Part shown: in pieces, positions 6,018-19,213 of the stretch | How positions within the stretch are numbered: the first letter of the stretch is position 1 | Layout: each line of letters starts with the position of its first letter | Assembly: GCA_963737655.1 (NCBI GenBank) | Contig: CAVTTN010000002.1 | Location: 1,664,001-1,728,000 of the forward strand | Length of the DNA stretch: 64,000 nt | From: an uncultured Planctomycetota bacterium | GTDB lineage: Bacteria > Planctomycetota > Planctomycetia > Isosphaerales > Isosphaeraceae | Direction of reading: 5' to 3' | Program-made: the position numbers and the translations under genes | The notes under the pieces: model-generated | Told to the model about the DNA's origin: nothing | What the model saw: only the letters and a program-made list of their open reading frames with translations | The model's database searches: none

Positions 6018-7745
6018 GTGACTCGGCGACTCCGCCCCTTCCCCGGCGTCCTGCTCGCCCCGGCCGCGGCGCTGGCCCTGATGGCCTCCGGGTGCTCGGA
6101 CTTCTCCTCGCCTCCGCCGCCGGTCGCCCCGGGGTCGTCCCCCGGTTCGATCTCGGGCGCCGTCGGCGACGGCTCCTCGGGCCTCGACCCGGAGGGGCGG
6201 AAGACGATCATCGACAACGTCTTGAAGCTGATCCGCGACGCCGCGACCAACGCCGGCGGCCACAACTTCGACATCGCCACCGAGAACCTCAACGACTACT
6301 TCGCCCCCGAATCGGCCGACCGCTTCGCCATCCCCGAGGCCACCCTCGCCTATCTGAAGACCCAGAAGCTCCCGCCCGACACGATCCAGGCCGTCGCCGA
6401 CCGCCGGTTCCAGAAGAACGACGGCCGACACATCGAGGACAACGACGTCTACCACGCCATCGCCTCCCGGGTGGCCGGCGAGAGGCTCGCGGGCGAGGCC
6501 GACGACCTGCCTCGGGTCCGCCGCCTGTTCGACTGGACCGTCCGCCACGCCATGCTGGTCCCCTCGGGCTCCCTGGTCCCCTCCGGGATGCCCCAGGCCC
6601 AGGCCCGGCCATATGACGTGTTGCTCCGCGGGATGGCCACCGAGGATCGCGGCGATTGGTCCGAACGCGGCTGGCTGTTCCTGACCCTCTGCCGGCAGAT
6701 CGGCATCGACGCCGGGATGATCGCCTACACCATCCCGATCCGACCTCACGGCCCCCTGGCGAAGTACGGGACCAGGCAGTTGACCGACCGCCTCCAGGCC
6801 CTGGCCGGCACCGGGGTCCGCGACCCCATGCCCTGGGCCTGCGGCGTCCTGATCGACGGCAAGGTCTACCTGTTCGACCCCCGGCTCGGCGTGGAAATCC
6901 CCTCCGCCGACGGCCGATCGGTGGCGACCCTCGAAGACGCGGCCACCGATCCGACCGTCCTGGCCCGGCTGGACCTGCCCGGCCGAGGCTACGAACCCAC
7001 CCGGATCGACCTGGCGAGCCGGCCGGTCCACGTCCTCCTGGAATCCAGCCTCGGCAGCCTCTCCCCCCGGATGAAGCTCCTCCAGGAGGCCCTGACCGGC
7101 AAGAACCGGATGAGCCTCTACCGCGACCCGGTCGAGCAGGCCGAGGCGTTCCGCAAGGCCCTGGGCCCTCGATGCGCCGGGGTGGACCTCTGGTCCCTGC
7201 CCCTGACCGTCGAGTACCTCCTGTTCCACGACGGCAACTTCACCGCCGCCACGCTCTACCCCCTCCAGTTCTTCGAGTCCCGATGGCCCCTGCTCTCGGC
7301 GAGGCTGACGCAGCTCCGCGGCGACCTGCCCGGCGCGATCCTCAAGTACGTCTCCTTCCGGTTCTCCGACGACACCTACGAGGCCGACGGCCGGACGAGG
7401 GTCCCGCAGAACGTCCAGCACGTCCTGGACATGTTCGCCACCTATTACCTCGCCCTCGGCCAGCTCGACAAGGGGGACCGCAAGCAGGCGGAATTCCTCT
7501 TCCGGGAGACCAGGCGGCTCCTGCCCGAGCCCGTCCGGGGCCAGCCCTTCACCATGTTCGGCTGGGGGGCCGAGACCAACCTCGGCCTGATCTGCCTCGA
7601 CGCCGGCCGGACGGCCGAGGCCATCCACTTCCTGACCATCGAACAGCCCACGGCCCAGGCCCACGGCAACCTCGTCCGGGCCCGAGAGCTGATCTGGCAA
7701 GACCCCTTCGCCACCACCCCAAGCCAGGCCCAGACCGGCCGATAA
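6018..7745 (+). CDS. hypothetical lipoprotein (possible transglutaminase-like fold, TPR-like C-terminus)
   Basis: Long ORF with GC3-biased codons; lipobox-like MASGC. Confidence 0.7.
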   Translation: MTRRLRPFPGVLLAPAAALALMASGCSDFSSPPPPVAPGSSPGSISGAVGDGSSGLDPEGRKTIIDNVLKLIRDAATNAGGHNFDIATENLNDYFAPESADRFAIPEATLAYLKTQKLPPDTIQAVADRRFQKNDGRHIEDNDVYHAIASRVAGERLAGEADDLPRVRRLFDWTVRHAMLVPSGSLVPSGMPQAQARPYDVLLRGMATEDRGDWSERGWLFLTLCRQIGIDAGMIAYTIPIRPHGPLAKYGTRQLTDRLQALAGTGVRDPMPWACGVLIDGKVYLFDPRLGVEIPSADGRSVATLEDAATDPTVLARLDLPGRGYEPTRIDLASRPVHVLLESSLGSLSPRMKLLQEALTGKNRMSLYRDPVEQAEAFRKALGPRCAGVDLWSLPLTVEYLLFHDGNFTAATLYPLQFFESRWPLLSARLTQLRGDLPGAILKYVSFRFSDDTYEADGRTRVPQNVQHVLDMFATYYLALGQLDKGDRKQAEFLFRETRRLLPEPVRGQPFTMFGWGAETNLGLICLDAGRTAEAIHFLTIEQPTAQAHGNLVRARELIWQDPFATTPSQAQTGR

Positions 7746-8672
7746 GCCGCCGAAATCCTCGCGGATCGGACGCGTTCAGCCCGTCGAATCGCGGTCCCTG
7801 TCGGGTCCGCTCTTGCGGACCTCTTCGATCTCGCATCATCGCGAAGAGGTCGACAAAATCCGCGATCCGACCCGCTCAACAGGAACCTCGGACCTTCGGC
7901 GGGCGGCACGGGTCGAACCCGACCCAGGGCACCCGGCGCGAGGAGTCGGAACGGACCGACCCGACCAACCCCCGACCCGGCCAGGACCGTTCGAGCCGAG
8001 GGCCTCGCCTCGCGACGAACCCCGGACACCGACCGACCCTCGGCCCATCGCCGTCCGAACCCATCCCCGGCCCTCACGTCCCACCCCCGATCCCACGAAT
8101 CAAGATCCCGACCCCCACGTCCATCCTCGCCAATCCCTCCGAACCAAACCATCGAGACCGCACCCCACCCCCGATCACCCAATCCCGCCACCACACCCGA
8201 CCAACCTCCCGAACGCCCCCTCACGCCCCACCCCAAACGGTCCACCCATTCCGACGAAAACCGGCGACGATTCCCCAAAAATTCACTCGACACAAGCCGT
8301 TCCAGCATCCAGCTTTGCCGGTCAAAACCAAACGAATTCTCGGATCGGAACTCCTGCCCTGGCAACAGTGACTGCGCGCCAGAAAACCCTGGAAAAACCG
8401 CCCTCCGGCGCAGTTTTTCGGGAAAAAGTGTCGTCAAGTTCCTCCAAATCAACGGTCATGCACCTCTAGCCTCGAGAAAAGTTGAGCAATCCAAGAAATG
8501 AGTAGAATCCAAATCAATAAATCGCAAAACATCGGCAAAATGGACGCTCGCCAGCCCGCAAACCCGACCCCACCCGCTCCTCCCCGGCGGATTTCCCGGA
8601 AGCCCCAGACCCCCCAGGATCGCAAGCCCCGGGAACCGTCGAGTGAGCCCTCAGAAATCAAAATTTGGGTGA

Positions 8673-8745
8673 CATGCTCACGTCTTCGTAAGAGTGGATT
8701 CGGCCGGGTTCGAATAGAAGACATGCCTACGAAGACGTGAGCATG
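8673..8745. repeat. REP-like inverted repeat
   Basis: CATGCTCACGTCTTCGTA (8673-8690) / TACGAAGACGTGAGCATG (8728-8745), 18-bp perfect IR. Confidence 0.75.
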
Positions 8746-8766
8746 CCATCCGACCAAAGAAAATCC

Positions 8767-8795
8767 TTGCAAGGCGAACTCGCCGTCGGCAAAAT
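8767..8795 (+). promoter_or_regulatory. candidate Pc-like sigma70 promoter facing the cassette array
   Basis: TTGCAA-17 nt-CAAAAT about 110 bp upstream of the attI-like site. Confidence 0.45.
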
Positions 8796-8819
8796 CAACA
8801 ACCGGCCCGAGATTATCCA

Positions 8820-8853
8820 TCCGAAACGACGTGATAAATCACGTCGTTTCGGA
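8820..8853. promoter_or_regulatory. perfect 16-bp palindrome (possible operator)
   Basis: TCCGAAACGACGTGAT-AA-ATCACGTCGTTTCGGA between the promoter candidate and the attI-like site. Confidence 0.5.
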
Positions 8854-8894
8854 CGCATAATCCCGCAAATTCGGGGATTCTGCGTCACTTTCGA

Positions 8895-8913
8895 TGTCTA
8901 CTTCATGTTAGGC
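8895..8913 (+). other. attI-like site at the head of the cassette array
   Basis: TGTCTAC-TTCAT-GTTAGGC: GTTRRRY core with a degenerate inverted box 5 nt upstream and no attC hairpin before it. Confidence 0.55.
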
Positions 8914-9104
8914 GGCTCGGCAACCGGTCGAGCCGGGGAGGGGGATGCGATGCCCGTTCGGCCGTTCGCGCCTCGTCGCCGTGCCGGTCGTCGCGTCGCC
9001 GTGCCGGTCGTCGCGTCGCCGTCGGCCGCGCCCCGCGTCGTCGCCGCCCGGGGTGGCGCGCGTGGTCGCCGCCGGCGGTCGTGCCCCGCGCGGTCGCGCC
9101 GCCT

Positions 9105-9484
9105 CTTCGTGAACTCTTTGGCTGGGAACGGCCATCGACGCGCGACACTACCCCAACCCCAGGCTTTGTGGCCGGGCAGCGGCGAGGTCCGGGTAGCAAA
9201 CCGACGGATTCAAGAGCGGCGGACGAGGCGCGGGCCGAGAGGGGAGTCGGTTACGCTTGCAGTCTCTTCGACGGGAACATCCCCGCGAGTCGGCTCGCGG
9301 GGCGTCGCCAATGACCGGATCACGACCTCTCGGGCCAGGCTAACCTACGGGCAGGGAGCACCAAGGTGGAGACGGCCGGGAGGCCCGCGCCACACTCAGG
9401 CTACGCCGCGCCGGGTCGGCGGGCAAGTCGTCCCCGACCCCCGTTCACGCCCCGTCGGGAGCGGACGAAGGCCGCAGGATGGTT
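9105..9484 (-). mobile_element. 380-bp non-autonomous IS110-derived mini-element, copy 1, inserted in attC
   Basis: Inserted at GCCT|AAC; homologous to the non-coding end of the IS110 at 13049-13337; no transposase ORF. Confidence 0.9.
9230..9392 (-). ncRNA. putative bridge RNA of the mini-element (boundaries approximate; also present in copies 2-4)
   Basis: Two stem-enclosed loops on the minus strand; AGGTTAG (plus CTAACCT 9340-9346) matches the attC target; CGAAGAG (plus CTCTTCG 9264-9270) matches the element end junction 9103-9109. Confidence 0.7.
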
Positions 9485-9579
9485 AACCTCGCGCTGCAGC
9501 GGACCCCACCCGCCGCATCGGTTTCTGGTAGATTCAAGGTCGCTCGTGCGGGTGGGTCCGCTGAGCTTGGCCGTTAGGC
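9485..9579 (+). other. attC site 1 (R'' box split by mini-element)
   Basis: AAC...GCTGCAGCGGACCCCACCCGC / GCGGGTGGGTCCGCTGAGC...GTTAGGC with extrahelical bases. Confidence 0.9.
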
Positions 9580-10565
9580 GGCTCAGGAGTCGAAGCCTTC
9601 GGTCGTGCTCGTCGTCGGCCTCGCCGGTCGCGCCTCGGCTCGACGACGCCATCGGTCGGGCCCCTGGAGTCGGCCTCGGCGGTGGTGCGCGTCGTCGCCC
9701 TCGCCGGCCGCGCCCCCGAGGTCGGGCCCGTCGGCCGGCGCCCCCTTGCCAACGCCGTCGGTCCGTGCCAGGATCGTCGGTGTCGGCGCGTGGGGCGTCG
9801 CCGGGCGCCGCCTAACCCGGCGCTGCAGCGGACCCGGCCCGCGGTCGACGATCACTCTCCTCTCAATCTCGCCGGGCGCGGGCCGGTCCGCTGAGCTTTG
9901 TCGTTAGGCGGCTCAGGAGTCGAAGCCTTCGGTCGTGCTCGTCGTCGGCCTCGCCGGTCGCGCCTCGGCTCGACGACGCCATCGGTCGGGCCCCTGGAGT
10001 CGGCCTCGGCGGTGGTGCGCGTCGTCGCCCTCGCCGGCCGCGCCCCCGAGGTCGGGCCCGTCGGCCGGCGCCCCCTTGCCAACGCCGTCGGTCCGTGCCA
10101 GGATCGTCGGTGTCGGCGCGTGGGGCGTCGCCGGGGCGCCGCCTAACCCGGCGCTGCAGCGGACCCGGCCCGCGGTCGACGATCACTCTCCTCTCAATCT
10201 CGCCGGGCGCGGGCCGGTCCGCTGAGCTTTGTCGTTAGGCGGCTCAGGAGTCGAAGCCTTCGGTCGTGCTCGTCGTCGGCCTCGCCGGTCGTGCCTCGGC
10301 TCGACGACGCCATCGGTCGGGCCCCTGGAGTCGGCCTCGGCGGTGGTGCGCGTCGTCGCCCTCGCCGGCCGCGCCCCCGAGGTCGGGCCCGTCGGCCGGC
10401 GCCCCCTTGCCAACGCCGTCGGTCCGTGCCAGGATCGTCGGTGTCGGCGCGTGGGGCGTCGCCGGGGCGCCGCCTAACCCGGCGCTGCAGCGGACCCGGC
10501 CCGCGGTCGACGATCACTCTCCTCTCAATCTCGCCGGGCGCGGGCCGGTCCGCTGAGCTTTGTCG
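9574..10565 (+). repeat. three tandem copies (330/331/331 bp) of an apparently ORF-less cassette, each with an intact attC (9810-9909, 10141-10240, 10472-10571)
   Basis: Near-identical units bounded by G|TTAGGC crossovers; attC GCCTAAC...GTTAGGC, 100 bp. Confidence 0.9.
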
Positions 10566-10652
10566 TTAGGCGGCTAGGAGATGACGTCGCCGGAAGCACG
10601 CACAATCCGACGACCCTTTCGATGGAACGGCCGATCTCGCGGCGGGGCGTTT

Positions 10653-11543
10653 ATGGCTTTCCTGCGGATGTCGGTCCTCGGCCTCACAGGCGTCATCGCA
10701 ATGGTCGCCCTCGCATTGGCGTCTCTTCGCTACTCGACGCCGAACGTGGCGCGATGGAGCCTGACGGCGGTCTTCCTGATCCACGGGCTCGCGATCCTCG
10801 CCGCGATCTATCGACGTGGGGCGACTCGCGCCTTCTGGCTGGGCTTTGCCCTGATGGGCGGGGGCTATCTGGGCCTCTCCTCCGGCTCGTGGACGCTCAC
10901 CCAAAAGGAAGATGACTTGTACAAGAATGGATTCTTCGTGGATTTCGCCGGCGTTCACGGCGCGGTGCGTGAACCGGCCCCGCTCGGACACTGGCTAGGT
11001 ACAACGGCCCTCCTCGACTCGCTACGCATCGGGATTCAGATCGACAACGGCACCGGCTCGCCCCCGAACAGGCTGGAAGGATTGTTCGACTTCGATCGCA
11101 GGAGAAGTGCCATGCTCGCCGCGTTAGACCGGCCGCTTGAGATGCCGTTTCCACGAGAAACTCCGCTCGATGACGTGCTGAATTACATCAAGGTCTCGAC
11201 TCGCACCGCGGCCCTGCCGGACGGGATCCCGATCTACGTCGATCCGATCGGGCTGGTGGAGGCGGAGAAGACGATGTCGTCGGGCGTGAGCCTGGAAGTG
11301 AAGGGCATCCCGCTTCGGAGGTCACTGCCCCTGATCCTCGGGCAGGTCGATCTGGCGTGCGTCGTTGATGCCGATCTTGTGACGATCACCAGCCGTACCC
11401 GCGCCTCGGTGACGGACCGCGTCGAGGCGTTTCGCCGCATCGGGCACAGCCTATTCGCCTTGATATTCGCCGTCATCGGCGGGGTTGCTGCTTGTACCCT
11501 AAGGACGAAGCCTGAAAGATCCACCCACGCCGCCTCCCCGTGA
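10653..11543 (+). CDS. cassette-borne planctomycete membrane protein (paralog of 52698-53603 and 53600-54481)
   Basis: N-terminal TM helices, YRRGATRAFWLGFAL, MPFPRETPLDDVLNYIK...GIPIYVDPIGL domain; alternative start 10581. Confidence 0.8.
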   Translation: MAFLRMSVLGLTGVIAMVALALASLRYSTPNVARWSLTAVFLIHGLAILAAIYRRGATRAFWLGFALMGGGYLGLSSGSWTLTQKEDDLYKNGFFVDFAGVHGAVREPAPLGHWLGTTALLDSLRIGIQIDNGTGSPPNRLEGLFDFDRRRSAMLAALDRPLEMPFPRETPLDDVLNYIKVSTRTAALPDGIPIYVDPIGLVEAEKTMSSGVSLEVKGIPLRRSLPLILGQVDLACVVDADLVTITSRTRASVTDRVEAFRRIGHSLFALIFAVIGGVAACTLRTKPERSTHAASP

Positions 11544-11695
11544 ACTCTTCGCGCCGGCGGTTCGGCATCGGTTGATACTATGTGGGCGTGATCATCGATC
11601 GGCCCGCATCCCCCCCGGCCCCCGCGACGACGGGGACGGCCCGATCCGGCTCGGCGGGGCTTGCGGCCGGGCGCCCCGCCTCCGACCCGTCGCCC

Positions 11696-13048
11696 TCACG
11701 ACGGCGGCGACGGCGGCGACTTCGCCACCAGCTCGTAGCCCAGCGACCTCGCCTTGCGCCGCAGCGAACGCTCCTGCTTCCGCCTCACCTCCGCCTCGTA
11801 CTCCGCCAGCGACCTCGACACGTACTCCTCGCCGTGCCTGAGCAGCCGGTACACCAGCCGCGACAGCTTGTGCGCCGTCGCCGTGATCGCCCCGCGGCCG
11901 CCGATCCGGCCCTTGATCCGCCGGTAGAACTGGCCCGTCGCCGTCGCCGTCCGGCCCGCCGCCTGCGCCGCCATCCGCAGCGCCTGACCCACCCGGTTCT
12001 TGCCCTTGCGGGGCGTGCGACGCCGCTCGGTCTTGTTGCTCCGGTCGGTCCGCGGGCAGAGGCCCAGCCAGCTGGCGAAGTGCTTCTCGCTCGGGAACCG
12101 CCCCACGTCGCCGCCGAGCTCCGCCAGGATCACCGTCGCCGTCGTCGCGTCGATCCCCTCGATGGCCGTCAGGTCGACGCCGATCGCCCGGGCCAGCTTG
12201 GCCGGGGCGTCGAACCGCACGTCGTTGGCCTTGCGGCCGCGACGCCGCGGCCTCGGGGCGACCGGCTCGCCCCCGGAGCGGTCGGGCAGGCGGTCCAGCT
12301 CCTCGGCGATCCGGGCGTCGCACTCGTCGACCTGGCGGTGGAGGTACTGGTACAGGTCGGACGCCTGCTTCAGGGCGAACAGGTGCTCGGGCCGCCAGGT
12401 GCCCTCCAGGGCCCGGGCGATCTCCGCCTCGTCCCGGGCGCACCGCTCGTGCCGCAGCGCGGCCAGCCTCGCCGGGTCGCGCTCGCCGGCGAGGATGGCG
12501 GCGATGATCGCCGTGCCGGTGACGCCCGTGATGCTGCTGACGACCTCGGTCAGCTTCACATTCATCTGCTCCAAAGCCTTCTGCATGTGCTGGACGTGGT
12601 GCGAGGCGTACCGCACGAGCATCTGCCGCTGCCGCCAGTAGCCGCGCAGGGCCAGGACGGCCCCGGGCGGGCGGAAGGACGGGCGGAGCAGGCCGCAGGC
12701 GTGGAGGCGCTGGAGCCACTGGCAGTCGAGCCGGTCGGTCTTGGGCCGGGCGCCGCAGTGGCTGGCCTGGCTCGGCTCGATGAGGAAGACCTCGAAGCCG
12801 CGCGATTCGAGCAGCTCGAACAGGGGGATCCAGTAGACGCCGGTGGACTCCAGGACCACCGAGGTGACGCCCTCGGCCCGGAACCAATCGGCCAGGGCGT
12901 GGAGGTCGGCCGAGCAGGCGCCGAAGGTGCGGACCCGTCCGGGCCCGACGCAGGCGACGTGGTTGTCGGAGTGGACGTCGACGGCGGCGGCGTGGGGGTG
13001 GACGACCGGCAGGGACGCGTCGGGATCGGGGGGCGTGCGGCGACTCAT
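11696..13048 (-). CDS. IS110-family DEDD recombinase/transposase
   Basis: AAVDVH, LESTGVYW, KTDRLDC (DEDD RuvC-like); FPSEKHFASWLGLCP...SN; ATAHKL. Confidence 0.95.
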   Translation of the reverse strand: MSRRTPPDPDASLPVVHPHAAAVDVHSDNHVACVGPGRVRTFGACSADLHALADWFRAEGVTSVVLESTGVYWIPLFELLESRGFEVFLIEPSQASHCGARPKTDRLDCQWLQRLHACGLLRPSFRPPGAVLALRGYWRQRQMLVRYASHHVQHMQKALEQMNVKLTEVVSSITGVTGTAIIAAILAGERDPARLAALRHERCARDEAEIARALEGTWRPEHLFALKQASDLYQYLHRQVDECDARIAEELDRLPDRSGGEPVAPRPRRRGRKANDVRFDAPAKLARAIGVDLTAIEGIDATTATVILAELGGDVGRFPSEKHFASWLGLCPRTDRSNKTERRRTPRKGKNRVGQALRMAAQAAGRTATATGQFYRRIKGRIGGRGAITATAHKLSRLVYRLLRHGEEYVSRSLAEYEAEVRRKQERSLRRKARSLGYELVAKSPPSPPS

Positions 13049-13084
13049 GGCGAGGGCTCCGGCGGGTGGGGGGCCAAGCCGTCG

Positions 13085-13250
13085 CGGGCCGAGAGGGGGT
13101 CCGGGGACGAGGTAGTCTCCCCGACGGGAACGTCGCGGGGCCGTGTTGACACGGCGCCGCGGGTCACCAATGATGGGGCCACGGCCTCTCGGGCCATGCT
13201 AACCTGCGGGCGGCGAGCACCAGGGAGATGACGGCCGGGAGGCCCGCGAC
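13085..13250 (-). ncRNA. putative IS110 bridge RNA (boundaries approximate)
   Basis: Non-coding end upstream of the transposase; CTAACCT 13199-13205 matches the target; CTCCCCG 13117-13123 matches the element end junction 11534-11540. Confidence 0.75.
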
Positions 13251-13337
13251 GGCGTGCCCCAGCGTATCGCGCCCGGTGGTCGGGGCCACCCCCGGTTCAC
13301 GTCCGTCGGGGAGCGGTCGGAGACGGCGCGGAGAGTT

Positions 13338-13435
13338 AACCTCGCGCTGCAGCGGACCCCGGCCACGGGCCGCGCTTTCTCCGTTGTCATAGCTCACTGG
13401 TCCGTGGCCGGGTCCGCTGAGCTTGGTCGTTAGGC
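13338..13435 (+). other. attC site 5 (split by IS110)
   Basis: AAC..GCTGCAGCGGACC..GGTCCGCTGAGC..GTTAGGC. Confidence 0.9.
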
Positions 13436-13447
13436 GGCTCGGTGGCG

Positions 13448-13717
13448 ATGCCTGAAGTACCGCTCGCTCACCTCGTATTCCTGCGGCGTGGCTCCGTACT
13501 CATCGTCAAGCGGCCCGAGGTCGACTGGCGGCAACTCCAAGACGAATACGACGACTACATGGCGTCGCTCGGCCCTTGGTCGGAGGACGACATCTGCGAG
13601 CACTTCGCGCTTGACTACGGGGAGGACGATCGCCGCTGGCCGTTCACGCGGTCGGCCATCGGCGAGTTCATGCGCGCGGCTGGCCCGGTCGTGCTGGAGT
13701 CGGCCGCCTCTTCGTGA
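13448..13717 (+). CDS. cassette hypothetical protein (acidic, about 90 aa)
   Basis: ORF fills the cassette; stop codon supplied by mini-element 2. Confidence 0.7.
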   Translation: MPEVPLAHLVFLRRGSVLIVKRPEVDWRQLQDEYDDYMASLGPWSEDDICEHFALDYGEDDRRWPFTRSAIGEFMRAAGPVVLESAASS

Positions 13718-14089
13718 ACTCTTTGGCTGGGAACGGCCATCGACGCGCAACACTACCCCAACCCCAGGCTTTGTGGCCGGGCAGCGGCGAGGTCCGGGTA
13801 GCAAACCGACGGATTCAAGAGCGGCGGACGAGGCGCGGGCCGAGAGGGGAGTCGGTTACGCTTGCAGTCTCTTCGACGGGAACATCCCCGCGAGTCGGCT
13901 CGCGGGGCGTCGCCAATGACCGGATCACGACCTCTCGGGCCAGGCTAACCTACGGGCAGGGAGCACCAAGGTGGAGACGGCCGGGAGGCCCGCGCCACAC
14001 TCAGGCTACGCCGCGCCGGGTCGGCGGGCAAGTCGTCCCCGACCCCCGTTCACGCCCCGTCGGGAGCGGACGAAGGCCGCAGGATGGTT
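13710..14089 (-). mobile_element. 380-bp IS110-derived mini-element, copy 2
   Basis: Near-identical to copy 1 (one substitution seen); inserted at GCCT|AAC. Confidence 0.9.
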
Positions 14090-14184
14090 AACCTTGCGCT
14101 GCAGCGGACCCCACCCGCCGCGACGGTTTTGGTACTATCCGAGGTCGCTCGGGCGGGTGGGTCCGCTGAGCTTTGTCGTTAGGC
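14090..14184 (+). other. attC site 6 (split)
   Basis: attC hairpin ending GTTAGGC 14178-14184. Confidence 0.9.
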
Positions 14185-14199
14185 GGCGGAGATTTTATC

Positions 14200-14820
14200 G
14201 TGCATCGAGCGATGTTCGTACTCACGGCCCTATTAACCGCCGGGTGCGGACAAGATCTATCTTCGAAGACGCCCCCGATCCTTTCGAAGGCTCTCCCCGA
14301 CTCGGGTCGCCGTGTGATTGATGCCGATCGGGTTGTAAAAGTTGCAGGGCGGACTCTCCCGGATGTTCCCCTCGTCGTGAACGGCGCGACGGGGGAGTCC
14401 GACTCCGCTGGTCATGCACTGTTCACGCTCAAAGGCGGACCGGAGCGAGTTCTGGCATCTGATCCCATCCTCAGCATCGCGCACGTCAAGATCGCGCCGG
14501 ACCGATCCGTCGGGGTCGAGAGCCGGGGAACCACGAGCGGGAATACACCCGACAAGTTCGTCTGGGACGAGCATCGCGATTTCAAGATCAATGGACAGCC
14601 GGCCACTTTGAGCCTTCGTCTGGATGGGCGCAATCATAGCCTACAAGTTGCCGGCGAGACCTTCGATCTCGCCCGAGGTAATTTCTTCACCGTCAGGCTG
14701 GCGGCCGGTTCACGTCTGGTCGCTGAACAGTTTCCACTGATTGATGTCATCGAGGATGATCCGCCCAAAGTTGAAGCCAGATTCACTGGATTCGAGAAAT
14801 CTCGACAAGGTGGTAAGTAG
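14200..14820 (+). CDS. cassette hypothetical lipoprotein
   Basis: Lipobox LTAGC after a hydrophobic stretch; lower GC. Confidence 0.7.
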   Translation: MHRAMFVLTALLTAGCGQDLSSKTPPILSKALPDSGRRVIDADRVVKVAGRTLPDVPLVVNGATGESDSAGHALFTLKGGPERVLASDPILSIAHVKIAPDRSVGVESRGTTSGNTPDKFVWDEHRDFKINGQPATLSLRLDGRNHSLQVAGETFDLARGNFFTVRLAAGSRLVAEQFPLIDVIEDDPPKVEARFTGFEKSRQGGK

Positions 14821-14865
14821 CTGTGGCCTTGCCTAAGCTTCGGCCGGCGTAGCGGCGAGATGCCT

Positions 14866-15245
14866 CTTCGTGAACTCTTTGGCTGGGAACGGCCATCGAC
14901 GCGCGACACTACCCCAACCCCAGGCTTTGTGGCCGGGCAGCGGCGAGGTCCGGGTAGCAAACCGACGGATTCAAGAGCGGCGGACGAGGCGCGGGCCGAG
15001 AGGGGAGTCGGTTACGTTTGCAGTCTCTTCGACGGGAACATCCCCGCGAGTCGGCTCGCGGGGCGTCGCCAATGACCGGATCACGACCTCTCGGGCCAGG
15101 CTAACCTACGGGCAGGGAGCACCAAGGTGGAGACGGCCGGGAGGCCCGCGCCACACTCAGGCTACGCCGCGCCGGGTCGGCGGGCAAGTCGTCCCCGACC
15201 CCCGTTCACGCCCCGTCGGGAGCGGACGAAGGCCGCAGGATGGTT
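14866..15245 (-). mobile_element. 380-bp IS110-derived mini-element, copy 3
   Basis: Near-identical to copy 1 (one substitution seen); inserted at GCCT|AAC. Confidence 0.9.
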
Positions 15246-15341
15246 AACCTCGCGCTGCAGCGGACCCCGCACCGCCGCGGCGATTCTTGTGTTATCATCG
15301 CGTTCTCGGCGGTGCGGGTCCGCTGAGCTTTGGCGTTAGGC
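15246..15341 (+). other. attC site 7 (split)
   Basis: attC hairpin ending GTTAGGC 15335-15341. Confidence 0.9.
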
Positions 15342-15369
15342 GGCTCGGCGAAGATGCCTCGGGACACCC

Positions 15370-15765
15370 GTGACGTTCGACCCCGACCGAATCATGACCC
15401 TCTCGACCATGCAGTTCCGACGTTTCGGAATCGCGTGCTGCTATCGGTTGGGGTGCGACCGCAAAGACAAGCGTCTCGCGAAGGCGCTCAAGAGACTGGA
15501 GCAATCGCTGGGGCCGCCGGCCGACGAGAGCATGCGTCGTGACGCGCTCAACGCCGCCAACTCCGCTTGCCGAGACCTCTCCGCAAGCAGCGGCGTGATA
15601 CAGGTCGTTGCCCGCACCCTTGTTTGTGCCTGCTGGGACGGTCCCAATGAGAATCTGATTGGGAATTTCGAAGCGGCGCTTGAACAAGGAGAGCACTTGA
15701 GCAGGTCCGAGATCAAGGACATTGAAAGCGAGATCTTTCGGGCTATCCTGGGCGCCTCTTCGTGA
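15370..15765 (+). CDS. cassette hypothetical protein
   Basis: ORF fills the cassette; stop codon supplied by mini-element 4. Confidence 0.7.
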   Translation: MTFDPDRIMTLSTMQFRRFGIACCYRLGCDRKDKRLAKALKRLEQSLGPPADESMRRDALNAANSACRDLSASSGVIQVVARTLVCACWDGPNENLIGNFEAALEQGEHLSRSEIKDIESEIFRAILGASS

Positions 15766-16137
15766 ACTCTTTGGCTGGGAACGGCCATCGACGCGCGACA
15801 CTACCCCAACCCCAGGCTTTGTGGCCGGGCAGCGGCGAGGTCCGGGTAGCAAACCGACGGATTCAAGAGCGGCGGACGAGGCGCGGGCCGAGAGGGGAGT
15901 CGGTTACGCTTGCAGTCTCTTCGACGGGAACATCCCCGCGAGTCGGCTCGCGGGGCGTCGCCAATGACCGGATCACGACCTCTCGGGCCAGGCTAACCTA
16001 CGGGCAGGGAGCACCAAGGTGGAGACGGCCGGGAGGCCCGCGCCACACTCAGGCTACGCCGCGCCGGGTCGGCGGGCAAGTCGTCCCCGACCCCCGTTCA
16101 CGCCCCGTCGGGAGCGGACGAAGGCCGCAGGATGGTT
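15758..16137 (-). mobile_element. 380-bp IS110-derived mini-element, copy 4
   Basis: Matches copy 1; inserted at GCCT|AAC. Confidence 0.9.
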
Positions 16138-16232
16138 AACCTGGCGCTGCAGCGGACCCGGCCCGCCGCGGTAGTTTCCGTGCTATCATCGGTCTGCTCG
16201 GCGGGCCGGTCCGCTGAGCTTGGTCGTTAGGC
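16138..16232 (+). other. attC site 8 (split)
   Basis: attC hairpin ending GTTAGGC 16226-16232. Confidence 0.9.
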
Positions 16233-16372
16233 GGTTCGGGCACCGTTGGATCGCGCGGCGAAATCCAGAAGTCCCAACGGCAGCCCCTTGTCATCCGCCG
16301 CCGGGATCGATAGGGTCGCCGGCGTCGGTGCCACGCAGCGGAGCGAGGCTTGTCTAATCAGGGGCGTAATCC

Positions 16373-16582
16373 ATGAAAGCCTGGAAGAAAACCTTCCCTT
16401 CGATCGGGTTCGCGATCGCCGCCGTGGCATTCCTATTCGCCGGTTTGGAGGAGCGGGTCATCGCTGGGGGGCGGCTCCGCTACCCCATGCTGAGCTTGGC
16501 ATTCTTGTACTTCGTCTTAGCCTTCGTATTCTTCGACCGAGGCCGGAAGTCAGGTGGCGAGACCGGACCGCCAAATGCCTGA
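16373..16582 (+). CDS. cassette small membrane protein (2 TM)
   Basis: AGGGG upstream; two hydrophobic segments. Confidence 0.6.
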   Translation: MKAWKKTFPSIGFAIAAVAFLFAGLEERVIAGGRLRYPMLSLAFLYFVLAFVFFDRGRKSGGETGPPNA

Positions 16583-16651
16583 CCTGCTGGCTAGCCCGGG
16601 CGATGCGGCGAGGAGGAACGATCGTCAGCGGCATTCAAGGTCTCCCGGCCT

Positions 16652-17647
16652 CCCCGTGAACTCTTCGCGCCGACGGTTCGACATCGGTTGATACTATGTG
16701 GGCGTGATCATCGATCGGGGTCAAAAAGGGGACGGGGGTCAAAAAGGGGACGGGGGTCAAAAAGGGGACGGGGTCAAAAAGGGGACGGAGCGAATAAATT
16801 CAGCTTTTTGCATTTTGCCGCGTCTCATCCAGGCCGAACTTATTCGCTCCGTCCCCTTTTCGGCCCCCGCCGTCCCCTTTTCGGCCCCCGCGTCCCCTTT
16901 TCGGCCCCCGTCCCCTTTTCGGCCCCTCTGCCGCTGCCGCCAGTAGCCGCGCAGGGCCAGGACCGCGGCCGGCGGGCGGAAGGACGGGCGGAGCAGGCCG
17001 CACGAGTGGAGGCGCCGGAGCCACTGGCAGTCGAGCCGGTCGGTCTTGGGCCGGGCGCCGCAGTGGCTGGCCTGGCTCGGCTCGATGAGGAAGACCTCGA
17101 AGCCGCGCGATTCGAGCAGCTCGAACAGGGGGATCCAGTAGACGCCGGTGGACTCCAGGACCACCGAGGTGACGCCCTCGGCCCGGAACCAGTCGGCCAG
17201 GGCGTGGAGGTCGGCCGAGCAGGCGCCGAAGGTGCGGACCCGTCCGGGTCCGACGCAGGCGACGTGGTTGTCGGAGTGGACGTCGACGGCCGCGGCGTGG
17301 GGGTGGATGACCGGCAGGGTCGCGTCGGGATCGGGCGGCTTGCGACGGCTCATCGGGCGGCTCCGGCGGGTTGGGGCGTGGGGGCCGAGCCGCCGCGAGC
17401 CGAGAGGGGGGCCGGGGACGAGCAGTCTCCCCGACGGGAACGTCGCGGCGCCGCGTTGACACGGCGTCGCGGGTCACCAATGATGGGGCCACGGCTTCTC
17501 GGGCCAGGCTAACCTGCGGGCGGCGAGCACCAGGGAAGGGACGGCCGGGAGGCTCGCGACGGCGTGCCCCAGCGTATCGCGCCCGGTGGTCGGGGCCACC
17601 CCCGGTTCACGTCCGTCGGGGAGCGGTCGGAGACGGCGCGGAGAGTT
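16652..17647 (-). mobile_element. internally deleted IS110 copy in attC (both ends and bridge region retained; transposase truncated, 16927-17353)
   Basis: High identity to 11536-13337 at both ends; about 1 kb replaced by a palindromic repeat block. Confidence 0.9.
16719..16926. repeat. palindromic tandem-repeat block (REP-like)
   Basis: 4x TCAAAAAGGGGACGG, central IR GGAGCGAATAA/TTATTCGCTCC, 4x GTCCCCTTTT(T)CGGCCCC. Confidence 0.8.
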
Positions 17648-17743
17648 AACCTGGCGCGGCAGCGGACCCCGCCCGCCACGACGCCTTCTGGTATCATCAA
17701 GCCTTTCCTCGGCGGGCCGGTCCGCTGAGCTTGGGCGTTAGGC
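17648..17743 (+). other. attC site 9 (split)
   Basis: attC hairpin ending GTTAGGC 17737-17743. Confidence 0.88.
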
Positions 17744-17772
17744 GGCTCGGAGGCGCGTAAGAGGGTCGAAAG

Positions 17773-18135
17773 GTGCCGCGACTCCGATTCACGGTGCGGG
17801 GGATGATGATCACCGTGGCGATCGCGGGGGTAGGCCTCGGCAGCCATCGGATGCACGCGCGTCGGCTCCGTTTCCTGGACCAAGCCCGATCCCATGCGGA
17901 GTCCGAGGCACATTGCGCCTTCATGTGGAGCGAGGTCTCCGCCTACCCGGATTTCCGATGGCCGGGCGACCGGCGACCCCCGAGGCCGCCCGAGAAAGTT
18001 CGCAGCGAGCAAGCGGCCGCGCGATCGTATTATGAGAGGAAGATCGCCCACCACGTCACCATGCGCGCGAAGTACGAGCGCGCCGCCCGCTACCCGTGGC
18101 TCCCCGTCGCGCCCGACTCGCGCGAGCCCAAGTGA
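17773..18135 (+). CDS. last cassette gene: small planctomycete-type membrane-anchored protein
   Basis: RFTVRGMMITVA N-terminus, KYERAARYPWLPVAPD C-terminus; no attC follows. Confidence 0.7.
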   Translation: MPRLRFTVRGMMITVAIAGVGLGSHRMHARRLRFLDQARSHAESEAHCAFMWSEVSAYPDFRWPGDRRPPRPPEKVRSEQAAARSYYERKIAHHVTMRAKYERAARYPWLPVAPDSREPK

Positions 18136-18148
18136 GGACACGCCATGC

Positions 18149-18650
18149 TGGACTTCCCCGCCGAGGGCGGGCGCCGGGTTACGAGCGTAAGCTCGAACCT
18201 GGAGGCCTTCATGCCGACGATCCGAAGGACGTGCACGCCCGAGTTCAAGGCCGAGGCCGTCAAGCTCGTCACCGAGCAGGGGCGGAGCTTCGTCGAGGTC
18301 TCTCGCGACCTCGACATCGGCGACAGCACGCTGAGGGGCTGGCGGGATGCCATCGCCAAGGACGGCCAGCGGGTCTTCCCGGGGCGGGGCATCCCGCCCG
18401 CCCTGGAGGAGGAACTCCGCCGCCTCCGCGCCGATGTCAAGCGGCTCACGATGGAGCGCGACATCCTGAAAGAAGCGACGGCCTGCTTCGCCGGGGGGTC
18501 GTCATGAGGTACGGCTTCGTCGAGGCCCACCGGGGCGATGGCCGGTCCGGCTCATGTGCCGGGTCCCGCGCGTCTCCCCGGGCGGCTACTACGACTGGCG
18601 GGGAAGGCCGAAGAGGGAAGGGGCACGGAGGCGCGACGACCTGGTCGTCG
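18149..18650 (+). pseudogene. IS3-family remnant (orfA 18211-18507; orfB frameshifted and truncated)
   Basis: TG-starting end; RRTCTPEFKAEAVKLV...LTMERDILKEATACFA; orfB fragments MRYGFVEAHR / MCRV..VSPGGYYDWR. Confidence 0.85.
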
Positions 18651-18751
18651 CCCAAACGCTCCGGGGCGGCGAGACGATCACGTCCCAGTCGTCCGCGAAG
18701 CACCTGCCCAGCCGGTTCCGCGTGACGGCCCAGCAGGGCGCCAGCAACCGG

Positions 18752-19213
18752 ATGCCGAGCTACCGGCTCGAACCCGAGGACGCCCCGACGGCACGACAGA
18801 CCCCGCTCCGTCGGCTCGAAGGACCGACGACGTCTCCGGGGACCAGGGCCGAGGCGGCGCCCGTCCCACCGGCCTCACCGCAGAAGGCTCCGGCCTGGCC
18901 GGAGAGCTTCCTCGCCGAGGCCCAGGCCCTGGCCCGCGACCTGGCGAGCGACCGGCCCGGCCGCCACGGCCTCCAGTTCGTCGTCGAGGAGCTCCAGGAG
19001 GTCGTCAACGACCGGCCCGACGACCTGCTGACGATCCTCCTGGCCGGGTACGTGGCCTCGGTGAAACTCGCCTGCGCGAGCGAACCCGATCGGGCCTACC
19101 GCGGCCACTTCGACGACCTGGCGCGGAAGGCCCTCGACCCGACCCTCCAGAACGTGGCGACGACCGCCCGACCCGGGGGCCTCGGCTCGCTCCTGGGGGC
19201 CGTCACCCGCTGA
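18752..19213 (+). CDS. hypothetical protein (start uncertain)
   Basis: GC3-biased frame downstream of the IS3 remnant. Confidence 0.35.
   Translation: MPSYRLEPEDAPTARQTPLRRLEGPTTSPGTRAEAAPVPPASPQKAPAWPESFLAEAQALARDLASDRPGRHGLQFVVEELQEVVNDRPDDLLTILLAGYVASVKLACASEPDRAYRGHFDDLARKALDPTLQNVATTARPGGLGSLLGAVTR

Follow-up and report, generated by a model that had tools for sequence, protein, structure and literature searches.

What are the four near-identical 380-bp elements that interrupt integron recombination sites (attC) of a planctomycete chromosome without carrying a gene of their own, and which enzyme could move them? The DNA that raises this question, called the window hereafter, comprises 64,000 nucleotides (nt) of contig CAVTTN010000002.1 (assembly GCA_963737655.1, positions 1,664,001 to 1,728,000, forward strand) of an uncultured Planctomycetota bacterium of the Isosphaeraceae, and was located in the 7.6-Mb assembly of its source genome (G000). 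Besides the four mini-elements it contains an 1802-bp insertion sequence (IS) of the IS110 family. In our interpretation, which we regard as likely, the mini-element is a non-autonomous IS110-group element with its own bridge RNA and its own ends that uses the recombinase of the resident IS. The elements, the gene of the presumed helper and the interrupted attC sites are the following.

9105..9484, minus strand: mini-element copy 1, 380 bp, running, as read on the minus strand, from a left end (LE) at 9484 to a right end (RE) at 9105
13710..14089, minus strand: mini-element copy 2, from window alignment and genome BLAST
14866..15245, minus strand: mini-element copy 3, from the same two sources
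15758..16137, minus strand: mini-element copy 4, likewise
9105..9111, minus strand: right-end terminus of copy 1, CACGAAG, followed by the AG of attC and in agreement with the donor guide of the mini-element
9485..9582, plus strand: what is left of the attC site interrupted by copy 1; the outer box of this site has its first 7 bases at 9098-9104, and copies 2-4 and the full IS are each followed by a corresponding remnant
11536..13337, minus strand: full IS110-family element, 1802 bp, with position and orientation in attC as for the mini-elements
11696..13048, minus strand: its transposase/recombinase, 450 amino acids (aa), with the domains DEDD_Tnp_IS110 (PF01548) and Transposase_20 (PF02371); the presumed helper

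The four mini-elements of the window align without gaps, are 98-100% alike with two differing internal positions, and lose their similarity exactly at these ends. Their flanks and those of the 1802-bp IS are alike, with GCCT on the left and AACCTnGCGCTGCAGCGGACC on the right, which bears out the sequence-only reading that had placed four near-identical elements at the same attC base as the full IS. A BLAST of the 380-mer against the genome, proposed at that stage as a check for more attC-embedded copies, gave 28 full-length mini-elements, 15 of them identical to copy 1, 25 at 98% identity or more and three at 87-95%. All 28 occupy a single position of attC with a fixed orientation, and none lies at a non-attC site. 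In 28/28 mini-elements and in 6/6 copies of the IS the insertion falls within the outer box of attC, between GCCT and AAC. The right flank is AACCT in every case and the left flank GCCT in 26 (GACT and TCCT in the other two), and the attC inner box is present for 27, one attC site being truncated after the outer box. The near-identity of 25 copies indicates that their spread was probably recent. The 1802-bp IS itself is present in six full copies plus fragments, the full copies all having the same position and orientation in attC; its 450-aa gene is open in the six copies, beyond which no other related recombinase was found in the genome.

Nearly every copy of the mini-element differs from the others in its 30-nt left flank and in its attC interior; with at least 25 cassette contexts, this indicates separate insertions and not cassette duplication. 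Two pairs of copies with common flanks are segmental duplicates. These pairs, which point to segmental duplication between arrays, the many repeated cassettes in the arrays, and an internally deleted IS copy in the window, from which it is clear that deletion derivatives arise, would all fit mini-elements that are dead deletion remnants spread passively by duplication, gene conversion or cassette shuffling by the integrase. We hold this to be very unlikely, as so many cassette contexts and different attC interiors surround near-identical elements, 15 of which have stayed identical despite the differing cassettes around them. The mini-element moreover lies inside the outer box of attC and is paired with many cassettes and attC interiors; it therefore fails the definition of an integron cassette and is not a unit on which the integron integrase acts. 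An exact empty paralogous site also speaks against passive spread. The 150 nt to the left of the mini-element at C2:1971065 recur at 100% identity at C2:6787752-6787901, where they run directly into attC, AACCTCGCGCTGCAG, and this counterpart defines the insert as precisely 380 bp without target duplication, with a one-base ambiguity. Copies at random non-attC sites with target duplications, named beforehand as what would speak against attC-specific elements, are thus not what the genome contains. In another paralogous cassette (88%) the IS occupies one copy and a mini-element the other.

Only sites that match the guide described below are filled, a further point against passive spread. The conserved attC inner box has 109 matches genome-wide, ~77 of them with a recognisable outer box, and by the bases of the outer box next to the insertion point the sites divide as follows.

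AACCT attC (AGGTT on the element strand): 35 of 52 occupied, 27 by a mini-element and 8 by an IS or IS remnant
AACCC attC: 0 of 14 occupied
GACCT attC: 0 of 6 occupied

The contrast in occupancy is significant by Fisher's test (p = 6e-8), also after collapsing a repeated AACCC cassette (ten sites of one cassette), which leaves 5 contexts (p = 0.006). The occupied sites represent 35 of the ~77 recognisable attC sites (~45%). The repeated cassette can be seen in the window at 9473-10575, which consists of three tandem ~331-bp units, two of them identical, each ending in an AACCC-type attC; no supported open reading frame was found in these units. At least four further arrays contain the ~331-bp unit again (attC contexts: 8 identical and 2 variants), and none of its attC sites is occupied by a mini-element or IS.

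The attC sites form at least seven clusters on the chromosome, at 0.28, 1.67, 1.97, 4.67, 4.85, 5.88 and 6.78 Mb. The single integron integrase gene of the genome (C2:6777135-6778073, TIGR02249, 474.6 bits) adjoins the array at 6.78 Mb, the other clusters being without one, so that the array in the window has no integrase of its own. A 335-codon frame to the left of the window array gave no Pfam match.

The mini-elements were said to encode no transposase, and this holds. A 125-codon frame on the plus strand across the mini-element was rejected as a gene, having no Pfam match and not staying in the same frame in relatives of 83% and 72% identity. Without a gene for a DEDD/RuvC-like recombinase the mini-element is a non-autonomous derivative and not a full member of IS110. 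[quoted passage not shown] As is usual for IS110, the mini-element has no terminal inverted repeats; it shares with the IS a 7-nt sub-terminal inverted repeat, CGTGAAC at positions ~36-42 of LE and GTTCACG just inside RE.

The first ~255 nt of the mini-element (minus strand) are ~75% identical to the upstream non-coding end of the IS; a chain of motifs shared with that end had been noticed in the sequence. The next ~90 nt have no match in the IS, and the last ~12 nt match it again. The termini of the two elements are thus related, contrary to the sequence-only reading, in which they differed. For the last ~125 nt no match was found elsewhere in the genome or in the IS, and a parental element, which the earlier reading had proposed to look for, did not turn up: neither the genome nor the relatives searched yielded a full-length element with the right end of the mini-element. 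The only other IS110-family gene of the genome, at C2:4847084, was rejected as parent, having no end sequence in common with the mini-element. With an open frame of 480 codons and 106.9 bits for PF01548, this unrelated gene (C2:4847084-4848526) has two empty attC sites at a distance of 2 kb and a divergent mini-element (88%) at 3 kb. In a tree of the RNA cores described below, five 380-bp mini-elements cluster together (88/96), apart from the clade of the resident IS (97/98); the mini-element is thus not a recent deletion product of the resident IS, and the earlier view that these are not simple deletions stands.

The non-coding flanks of the IS are 289 nt upstream and 160 nt downstream of its gene, which is an IS110-type layout. 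As to the attC targeting known from the IS1111 group, to which the earlier reading had referred, the IS described here is indeed found in attC, while its layout is not that of IS1111. The only solved relative of the 450-aa protein, judged by sequence, is the IS621 transposase, and the relationship extends over the C-terminal domain. The upstream end of the IS and the mini-elements have in common the following segments.

9226..9395, minus strand: bridge-RNA core of mini-element copy 1 (covariance model R1, 167 bits)
13831-14000, 14987-15156 and 15879-16048, minus strand: bridge-RNA cores of copies 2-4 (covariance model)
13080..13254, minus strand: bridge-RNA core of the IS, 156.9 bits

In each mini-element an RNA of ~175 nt is predicted on the minus strand, with the fold of the region upstream of the IS transposase. 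The shared region was aligned for 19 elements, comprising the mini-elements, the resident IS and relatives found through their recombinase. The consensus is a closing stem that encloses two stem-loop domains, each with an internal loop; domain 1 runs from a stem through an internal loop to a hairpin, and domain 2 likewise from a stem through an internal loop, with a short stem before its variable hairpin. Of the alignment cells of the 41 predicted pairs 94.9% are paired; sliding the partners by 1-3 columns lowers this share to 43-48%. Changes on both sides are seen in 10 pairs. In the hairpin of domain 2 compensatory changes separate the mini-elements of the window, of a congeneric genome (G003) and of a metagenomic contig (L001).

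A covariance model built from the 19-element alignment gives 167-169 bits for the RNA cores of the mini-elements and finds 78 RNA matches in the loci gathered. In the loci found through the recombinase the RNA is located ~90-340 nt upstream of the gene on the same strand, relatives from several phyla included, so that it is the regular 5' RNA of this IS subfamily. With 71 distinct sequences 94.2% of the cells are paired against 34-54% for slid partners, and 31 of 38 pairs are changed on both sides, values that lean towards structure because this alignment was fitted to the model. Folding of single sequences was uninformative (z of -0.65 for the mini-element and -1.85 for the IS end), and Rfam 15 (E<=1, window 7000-19000) had no match on the mini-elements or on the non-coding end of the IS. 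The conserved two-loop fold that had been looked for is therefore predicted on the strength of the compensatory changes in 19 and in 71 sequences.

Within the two internal loops the guides stand out as short hypervariable stretches between conserved frame motifs.

9340..9346, minus strand: left-target guide and core of copy 1, AGGUU-AG, on the 3' strand of loop 1
15993-15999, minus strand: left-target guide and core of copy 4, AGGUU-AG
13199-13205, minus strand: target guide of the IS, AGGUU-AG
9264..9270, minus strand: left-donor guide and core of copy 1, CGAAG-AG, on the 3' strand of loop 2
15917-15923, minus strand: left-donor guide and core of copy 4, CGAAG-AG
13117-13123, minus strand: donor guide of the IS, CGGGG-AG

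On the 3' strand of loop 1 a conserved AGC is preceded by six bases, the last five of which form the target guide, and this 5-mer equals the five host bases just to the left of the element. For the IS and the mini-elements of the window, AGGUU-AG in the RNA stands against AGGTT|AG in attC on that strand. Among 13 elements, which form eight classes of target guide, six classes match in 5/5 positions and two in 4/5, the mean for non-cognate combinations being 1.9/5. In the loci L005 and L006, which come from the same genome, a single-base difference in the guide is accompanied by the identical difference in the flank. On the 3' strand of loop 2 the donor guide precedes a conserved AGACU; its five bases equal the last five bases of RE, which are followed by AG.

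Mini-elements (6 rows): donor guide CGAAG, right end CACGAAG
Mini-element of contig L001: donor guide UGAAG, right end CATGAAG
Resident IS and two relatives (3 rows): donor guide CGGGG, right end CACGGGG
Nine further rows: donor guide UGGGG, right end CATGGGG

The mini-element and the IS thus share the target code and differ in the donor code, each being internally consistent. That the mini-elements carry a guide RNA and donor ends of their own, as had been proposed, agrees with the match of the guides to the attC flank and to their own RE, and with the co-variation of donor guide and RE.

The order of the guide strands agrees with the one reported for seekRNAs (PMC11187229, in the sections available). 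For the opposite strands of the loops the picture is less clear. A candidate for the right-target guide on the 5' strand of loop 1 was set aside: its end, CCU in all elements of the source genome, fits AGG there, and several lineages fail. In two other lineages this strand matches AGTAT, but 2 nt out of register. A tentative candidate for the right-donor guide is the beginning of the 5' strand of loop 2, by eye complementary to positions ~3-14 of LE in most lineages; it does not discriminate the IS from the mini-element.

The same data bear on the possibility that the IS recombinase moves the mini-elements when loaded with the bridge RNA of the IS, the RNA of the mini-element being an idle vestige. 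The target guide is common to both RNAs, the scaffolds are ~75% alike, and the 5' strand of loop 2 in the IS RNA is, by eye, able to pair with the left end of the mini-element as well. The donor guide of the IS, CGGGG, nevertheless has mismatches in 2/5 positions to the right end of the mini-element (CGAAG), whereas the mini-element's own guide matches 5/5, and IS621 is described as tolerating guide mismatches poorly (PMC11208160, in the parts available). Nor would a vestige be expected to keep its fold by compensatory changes in copies 72-88% alike, or to track the right end with its donor guide, as in the mini-element of L001, where U in the guide goes with T in the end. We therefore consider this explanation unlikely.

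By the preferred reading, in which the mini-element supplies its own guide, the enzyme of the larger relative is probably borrowed, and the movement in trans would proceed as follows. The mini-element retains a left end, what appears to be a complete bridge RNA gene and a short right end. Its RNA, presumably read from the minus strand, would present two internal loops, one for the target and one for the donor. AGGUU-AG of loop 1 would pair with the opposite DNA strand of the attC target, and CGAAG-AG of loop 2 with the donor, that is with the mini-element's own right end plus AG. The recombinase of the IS, recognising the conserved scaffold, would bind this RNA and excise the mini-element as a circle, which could then recombine into other AGGTT|AG attC sites between GCCT and AAC without duplication. 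The mini-element would thus need only protein from the IS and supply its own donor code. Transcription of the RNA, its binding by the IS protein, the circles and any present activity are what we infer here from sequence. In number of copies the mini-elements exceed the helper 28 to 6.

Several observations weigh against this reading. Thirteen attC sites with a perfect CCTAACCT are still empty. The dinucleotide is AA at the left junction and AG at the right, so that the flanking core is not the same on both sides. Guide strands could be assigned for two of the four that are expected (left target and left donor), and the matching strands are on the 3' sides of the loops as opposed to the 5' sides in IS621 (PMC11208160, in the parts available). 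The right ends in the wider donor table were located with the help of the guide; clean tests of the donor match are therefore the five elements whose ends were fixed independently of it, namely the IS and the mini-element of the window, the mini-elements of G003 and L001, and L010. As the 5' strand of loop 2 of the IS RNA is by eye also complementary to the left end of the mini-element, the two donor codes may not be fully separate. A scan for promoters and terminators at 8900-9700 gave no site, thus no sigma-70-like promoter in place, and at the computed circle junctions the mini-element has one weak hexamer pair and the IS none, again no sigma-70-like promoter. In G003, whose assembly is 77% complete, no close recombinase was found, the best having 42% identity.

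With 35 of ~77 attC sites interrupted and the RNA fold under selection, the mini-elements could also be immobile RNA genes recruited by the host, or modules that block attC for the freezing of arrays or the regulation of the IS; an element-borne small RNA (sRNA) of ISPpu9 has been proposed as transposase regulator (PMC12288879, in the sections available). We judge this highly improbable. The near-identity of 25 copies is that of a recent spread and not of old fixed genes, and the maintained match between donor guide and RE matters only for recombination of the element itself.

What can be said of the history of the preferred arrangement, a mini-element served by the IS, comes from related genomes. 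Among 61 genomes searched for mini-elements (60 relatives and the source genome), full-length copies were found only in the source genome and in its congener G003, which has one complete mini-element of 83% identity and three cut by contig ends (at least four in total), all in attC. On L001, a 2273-bp contig of a metagenome-assembled genome, an IS of 85% protein identity abuts a mini-element 72.5% identical over its whole length, so that the two elements occur together there as in the source genome. They lie head to tail on L001:1-2273 with no host bases in between. The target-guide stretch of this mini-element has 8 nt (ACGGUUGG) instead of the usual 6 and, less its two U, would read the RE of the neighbouring IS; it is a speculation from a single contig that the mini-element lands beside its helper. 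L001 is labelled Solirubrobacteraceae although its IS is 85% identical in protein to the planctomycete-like one.

A survey with the RNA model covered 101 genomes (100 of the family and the source genome) and found the RNA in 22 of them; the tally of neighbouring genes rests on 30 loci. Of 20 loci with a strong match in other genomes, 13 have a gene just downstream, two are cut by a contig end and five have no gene within 1.5 kb. Four of these five belong to a second family of mini-elements of ~489 bp, present in three other genera (L128 and L150 of G014, L135 of G098, L152 of G108). They have the same RNA, followed by a conserved ~230-nt tail unrelated to that of the 380-bp family; the donor match is UGGGG/CATGGGG, the match between guide and flank also holds, and one copy is in an attC-like site. 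The insertion point of L135 is at the 3' foot of a long imperfect palindrome.

Whether the mini-element and the IS are a long-lived parasite-helper pair is, to our mind, evenly balanced. Such a mini-element would have a private donor code, guide and RE having changed together from GGGG to GAAG, share the target code, depend on the helper for protein alone, be immune to the RNA of the IS and out-multiply the IS. The lineage of the mini-element would have persisted as such across species, and the second, 489-bp lineage in other genera would point to RNA-plus-ends satellites as a regular component of the subfamily, acting as natural orthogonal RNA/donor pairs served by one recombinase.

With published systems, as described in the sections of the papers available, there are likenesses as well as differences. 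IS621 consists of a DEDD recombinase and a two-loop bridge RNA encoded in LE upstream of the gene (Durrant 2024, PMC11208160; Hiraizumi 2024, PMC11208158). As in IS621 the non-coding RNA is upstream of the gene, the presumed helper comes from the DEDD recombinase family, two internal loops would read target and donor, each with a shared dinucleotide, and insertion is specific for site and orientation without duplication. Unlike IS621 the mini-element has no recombinase gene and carries the left-target and left-donor strands on the 3' loop sides; the guides of 5+2 nt and the flanking dinucleotides, AA on the left and AG on the right, also differ, and the 450-aa helper has by sequence only the C-terminal domain in common with IS621. 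The IS1111-attC group (ISKpn4, ISPst6, ISPa25) has its guide RNA downstream of a 330-350-aa transposase (PMC11187229). It shares with the elements described here RNA-guided insertion of the IS110 family at one end of attC, in fixed orientation and with disabling of the cassette sites, whereas here the RNA is upstream of a 450-aa protein and the abundant form is gene-less. Going by this layout, attC targeting here appears to have a separate origin.

The nearest precedent is MITEPpu9 of ISPpu9 in Pseudomonas putida, a gene-less module with 8 copies in REP sequences that forms circles. It carries the sRNA gene ssr9, located downstream of tnp, the bridge RNA being on a long transcript upstream of tnp (PMC12288879, in the sections available). 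Like MITEPpu9 the mini-element is small and gene-less, has IS-like ends and extra solo copies, and is proposed to be served by a transposase in trans; unlike MITEPpu9, the 380-bp mini-element would carry the bridge RNA itself and a private donor guide. A recent preprint (10.64898/2026.08.14.744561) describes, in the passages available, parts of IS110 loci that excise and reintegrate, and ~800-bp elements that keep the recombinase without the 5' untranslated region, implying a bridge RNA acting in trans. This is the converse split, protein without RNA, to the RNA plus ends of the mini-element, and no amplified family of RNA-plus-ends elements was found in those passages. The earlier suggestion that attC-specific bridge-RNA MITEs may be undescribed is softened by MITEPpu9 and the preprint; for a published MITE carrying a bridge RNA, the literature searched gave only MITEPpu9 and unrelated papers. 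What seems new here is that the bridge RNA would ride in the mini-element, with a donor code private to it. Also new are the attC targeting of IS110 type and its scale, with 28 mini-elements to six helpers and ~45% of the attC sites split.

Bridge recombinases are being developed as programmable genome editors. If the preferred reading is correct, a recombinase can serve in trans more than one bridge RNA within one cell, a donor guide can change jointly with its donor end to a new, separate code, and a guide of 5+2 nt suffices for a strict choice of site. Targeting of attC is extended from the IS1111 type to the IS110 type, and an environmental chromosomal integron is found with nearly half of its recombination sites split, at which excision should be blocked and the cassettes should freeze. 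The element, the helper gene and the target are defined to the base, making the idea directly testable in E. coli.

Two further kinds of rearrangement concern the full-length IS and its relatives. Related lineages have full IS copies arranged directly in tandem in L011 (1077-4359) and L053, those of L011 with an 11-nt spacer that repeats the target motif, which fits the tandem growth of IS110 loci described in the available passages of the preprint (10.64898/2026.08.14.744561). The other concerns the deleted IS copy of the window.

16648..17674, minus strand: second IS copy, in which a 208-bp palindromic repeat (16719-16926) takes the place of ~1 kb of the transposase gene
17391..17564: RNA core of the second IS copy, which retains the RNA core and both ends

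The 208-bp near-perfect palindrome at 16719-16926 is built of GGGTCAAAAAGGGGACG-like repeats and is also present in the source genome at C2:286711-286888 and 6792334-6792451. Rfam 15 gave only sub-threshold matches to microRNA models on it (16722-16920). Another IS copy has a different internal part replaced by a shorter version, and a third copy of the palindrome is found in attC beside a mini-element. The palindrome may represent a mobile repeat that forms a hairpin, or else a scar of repair from which non-autonomous derivatives of the IS arise.

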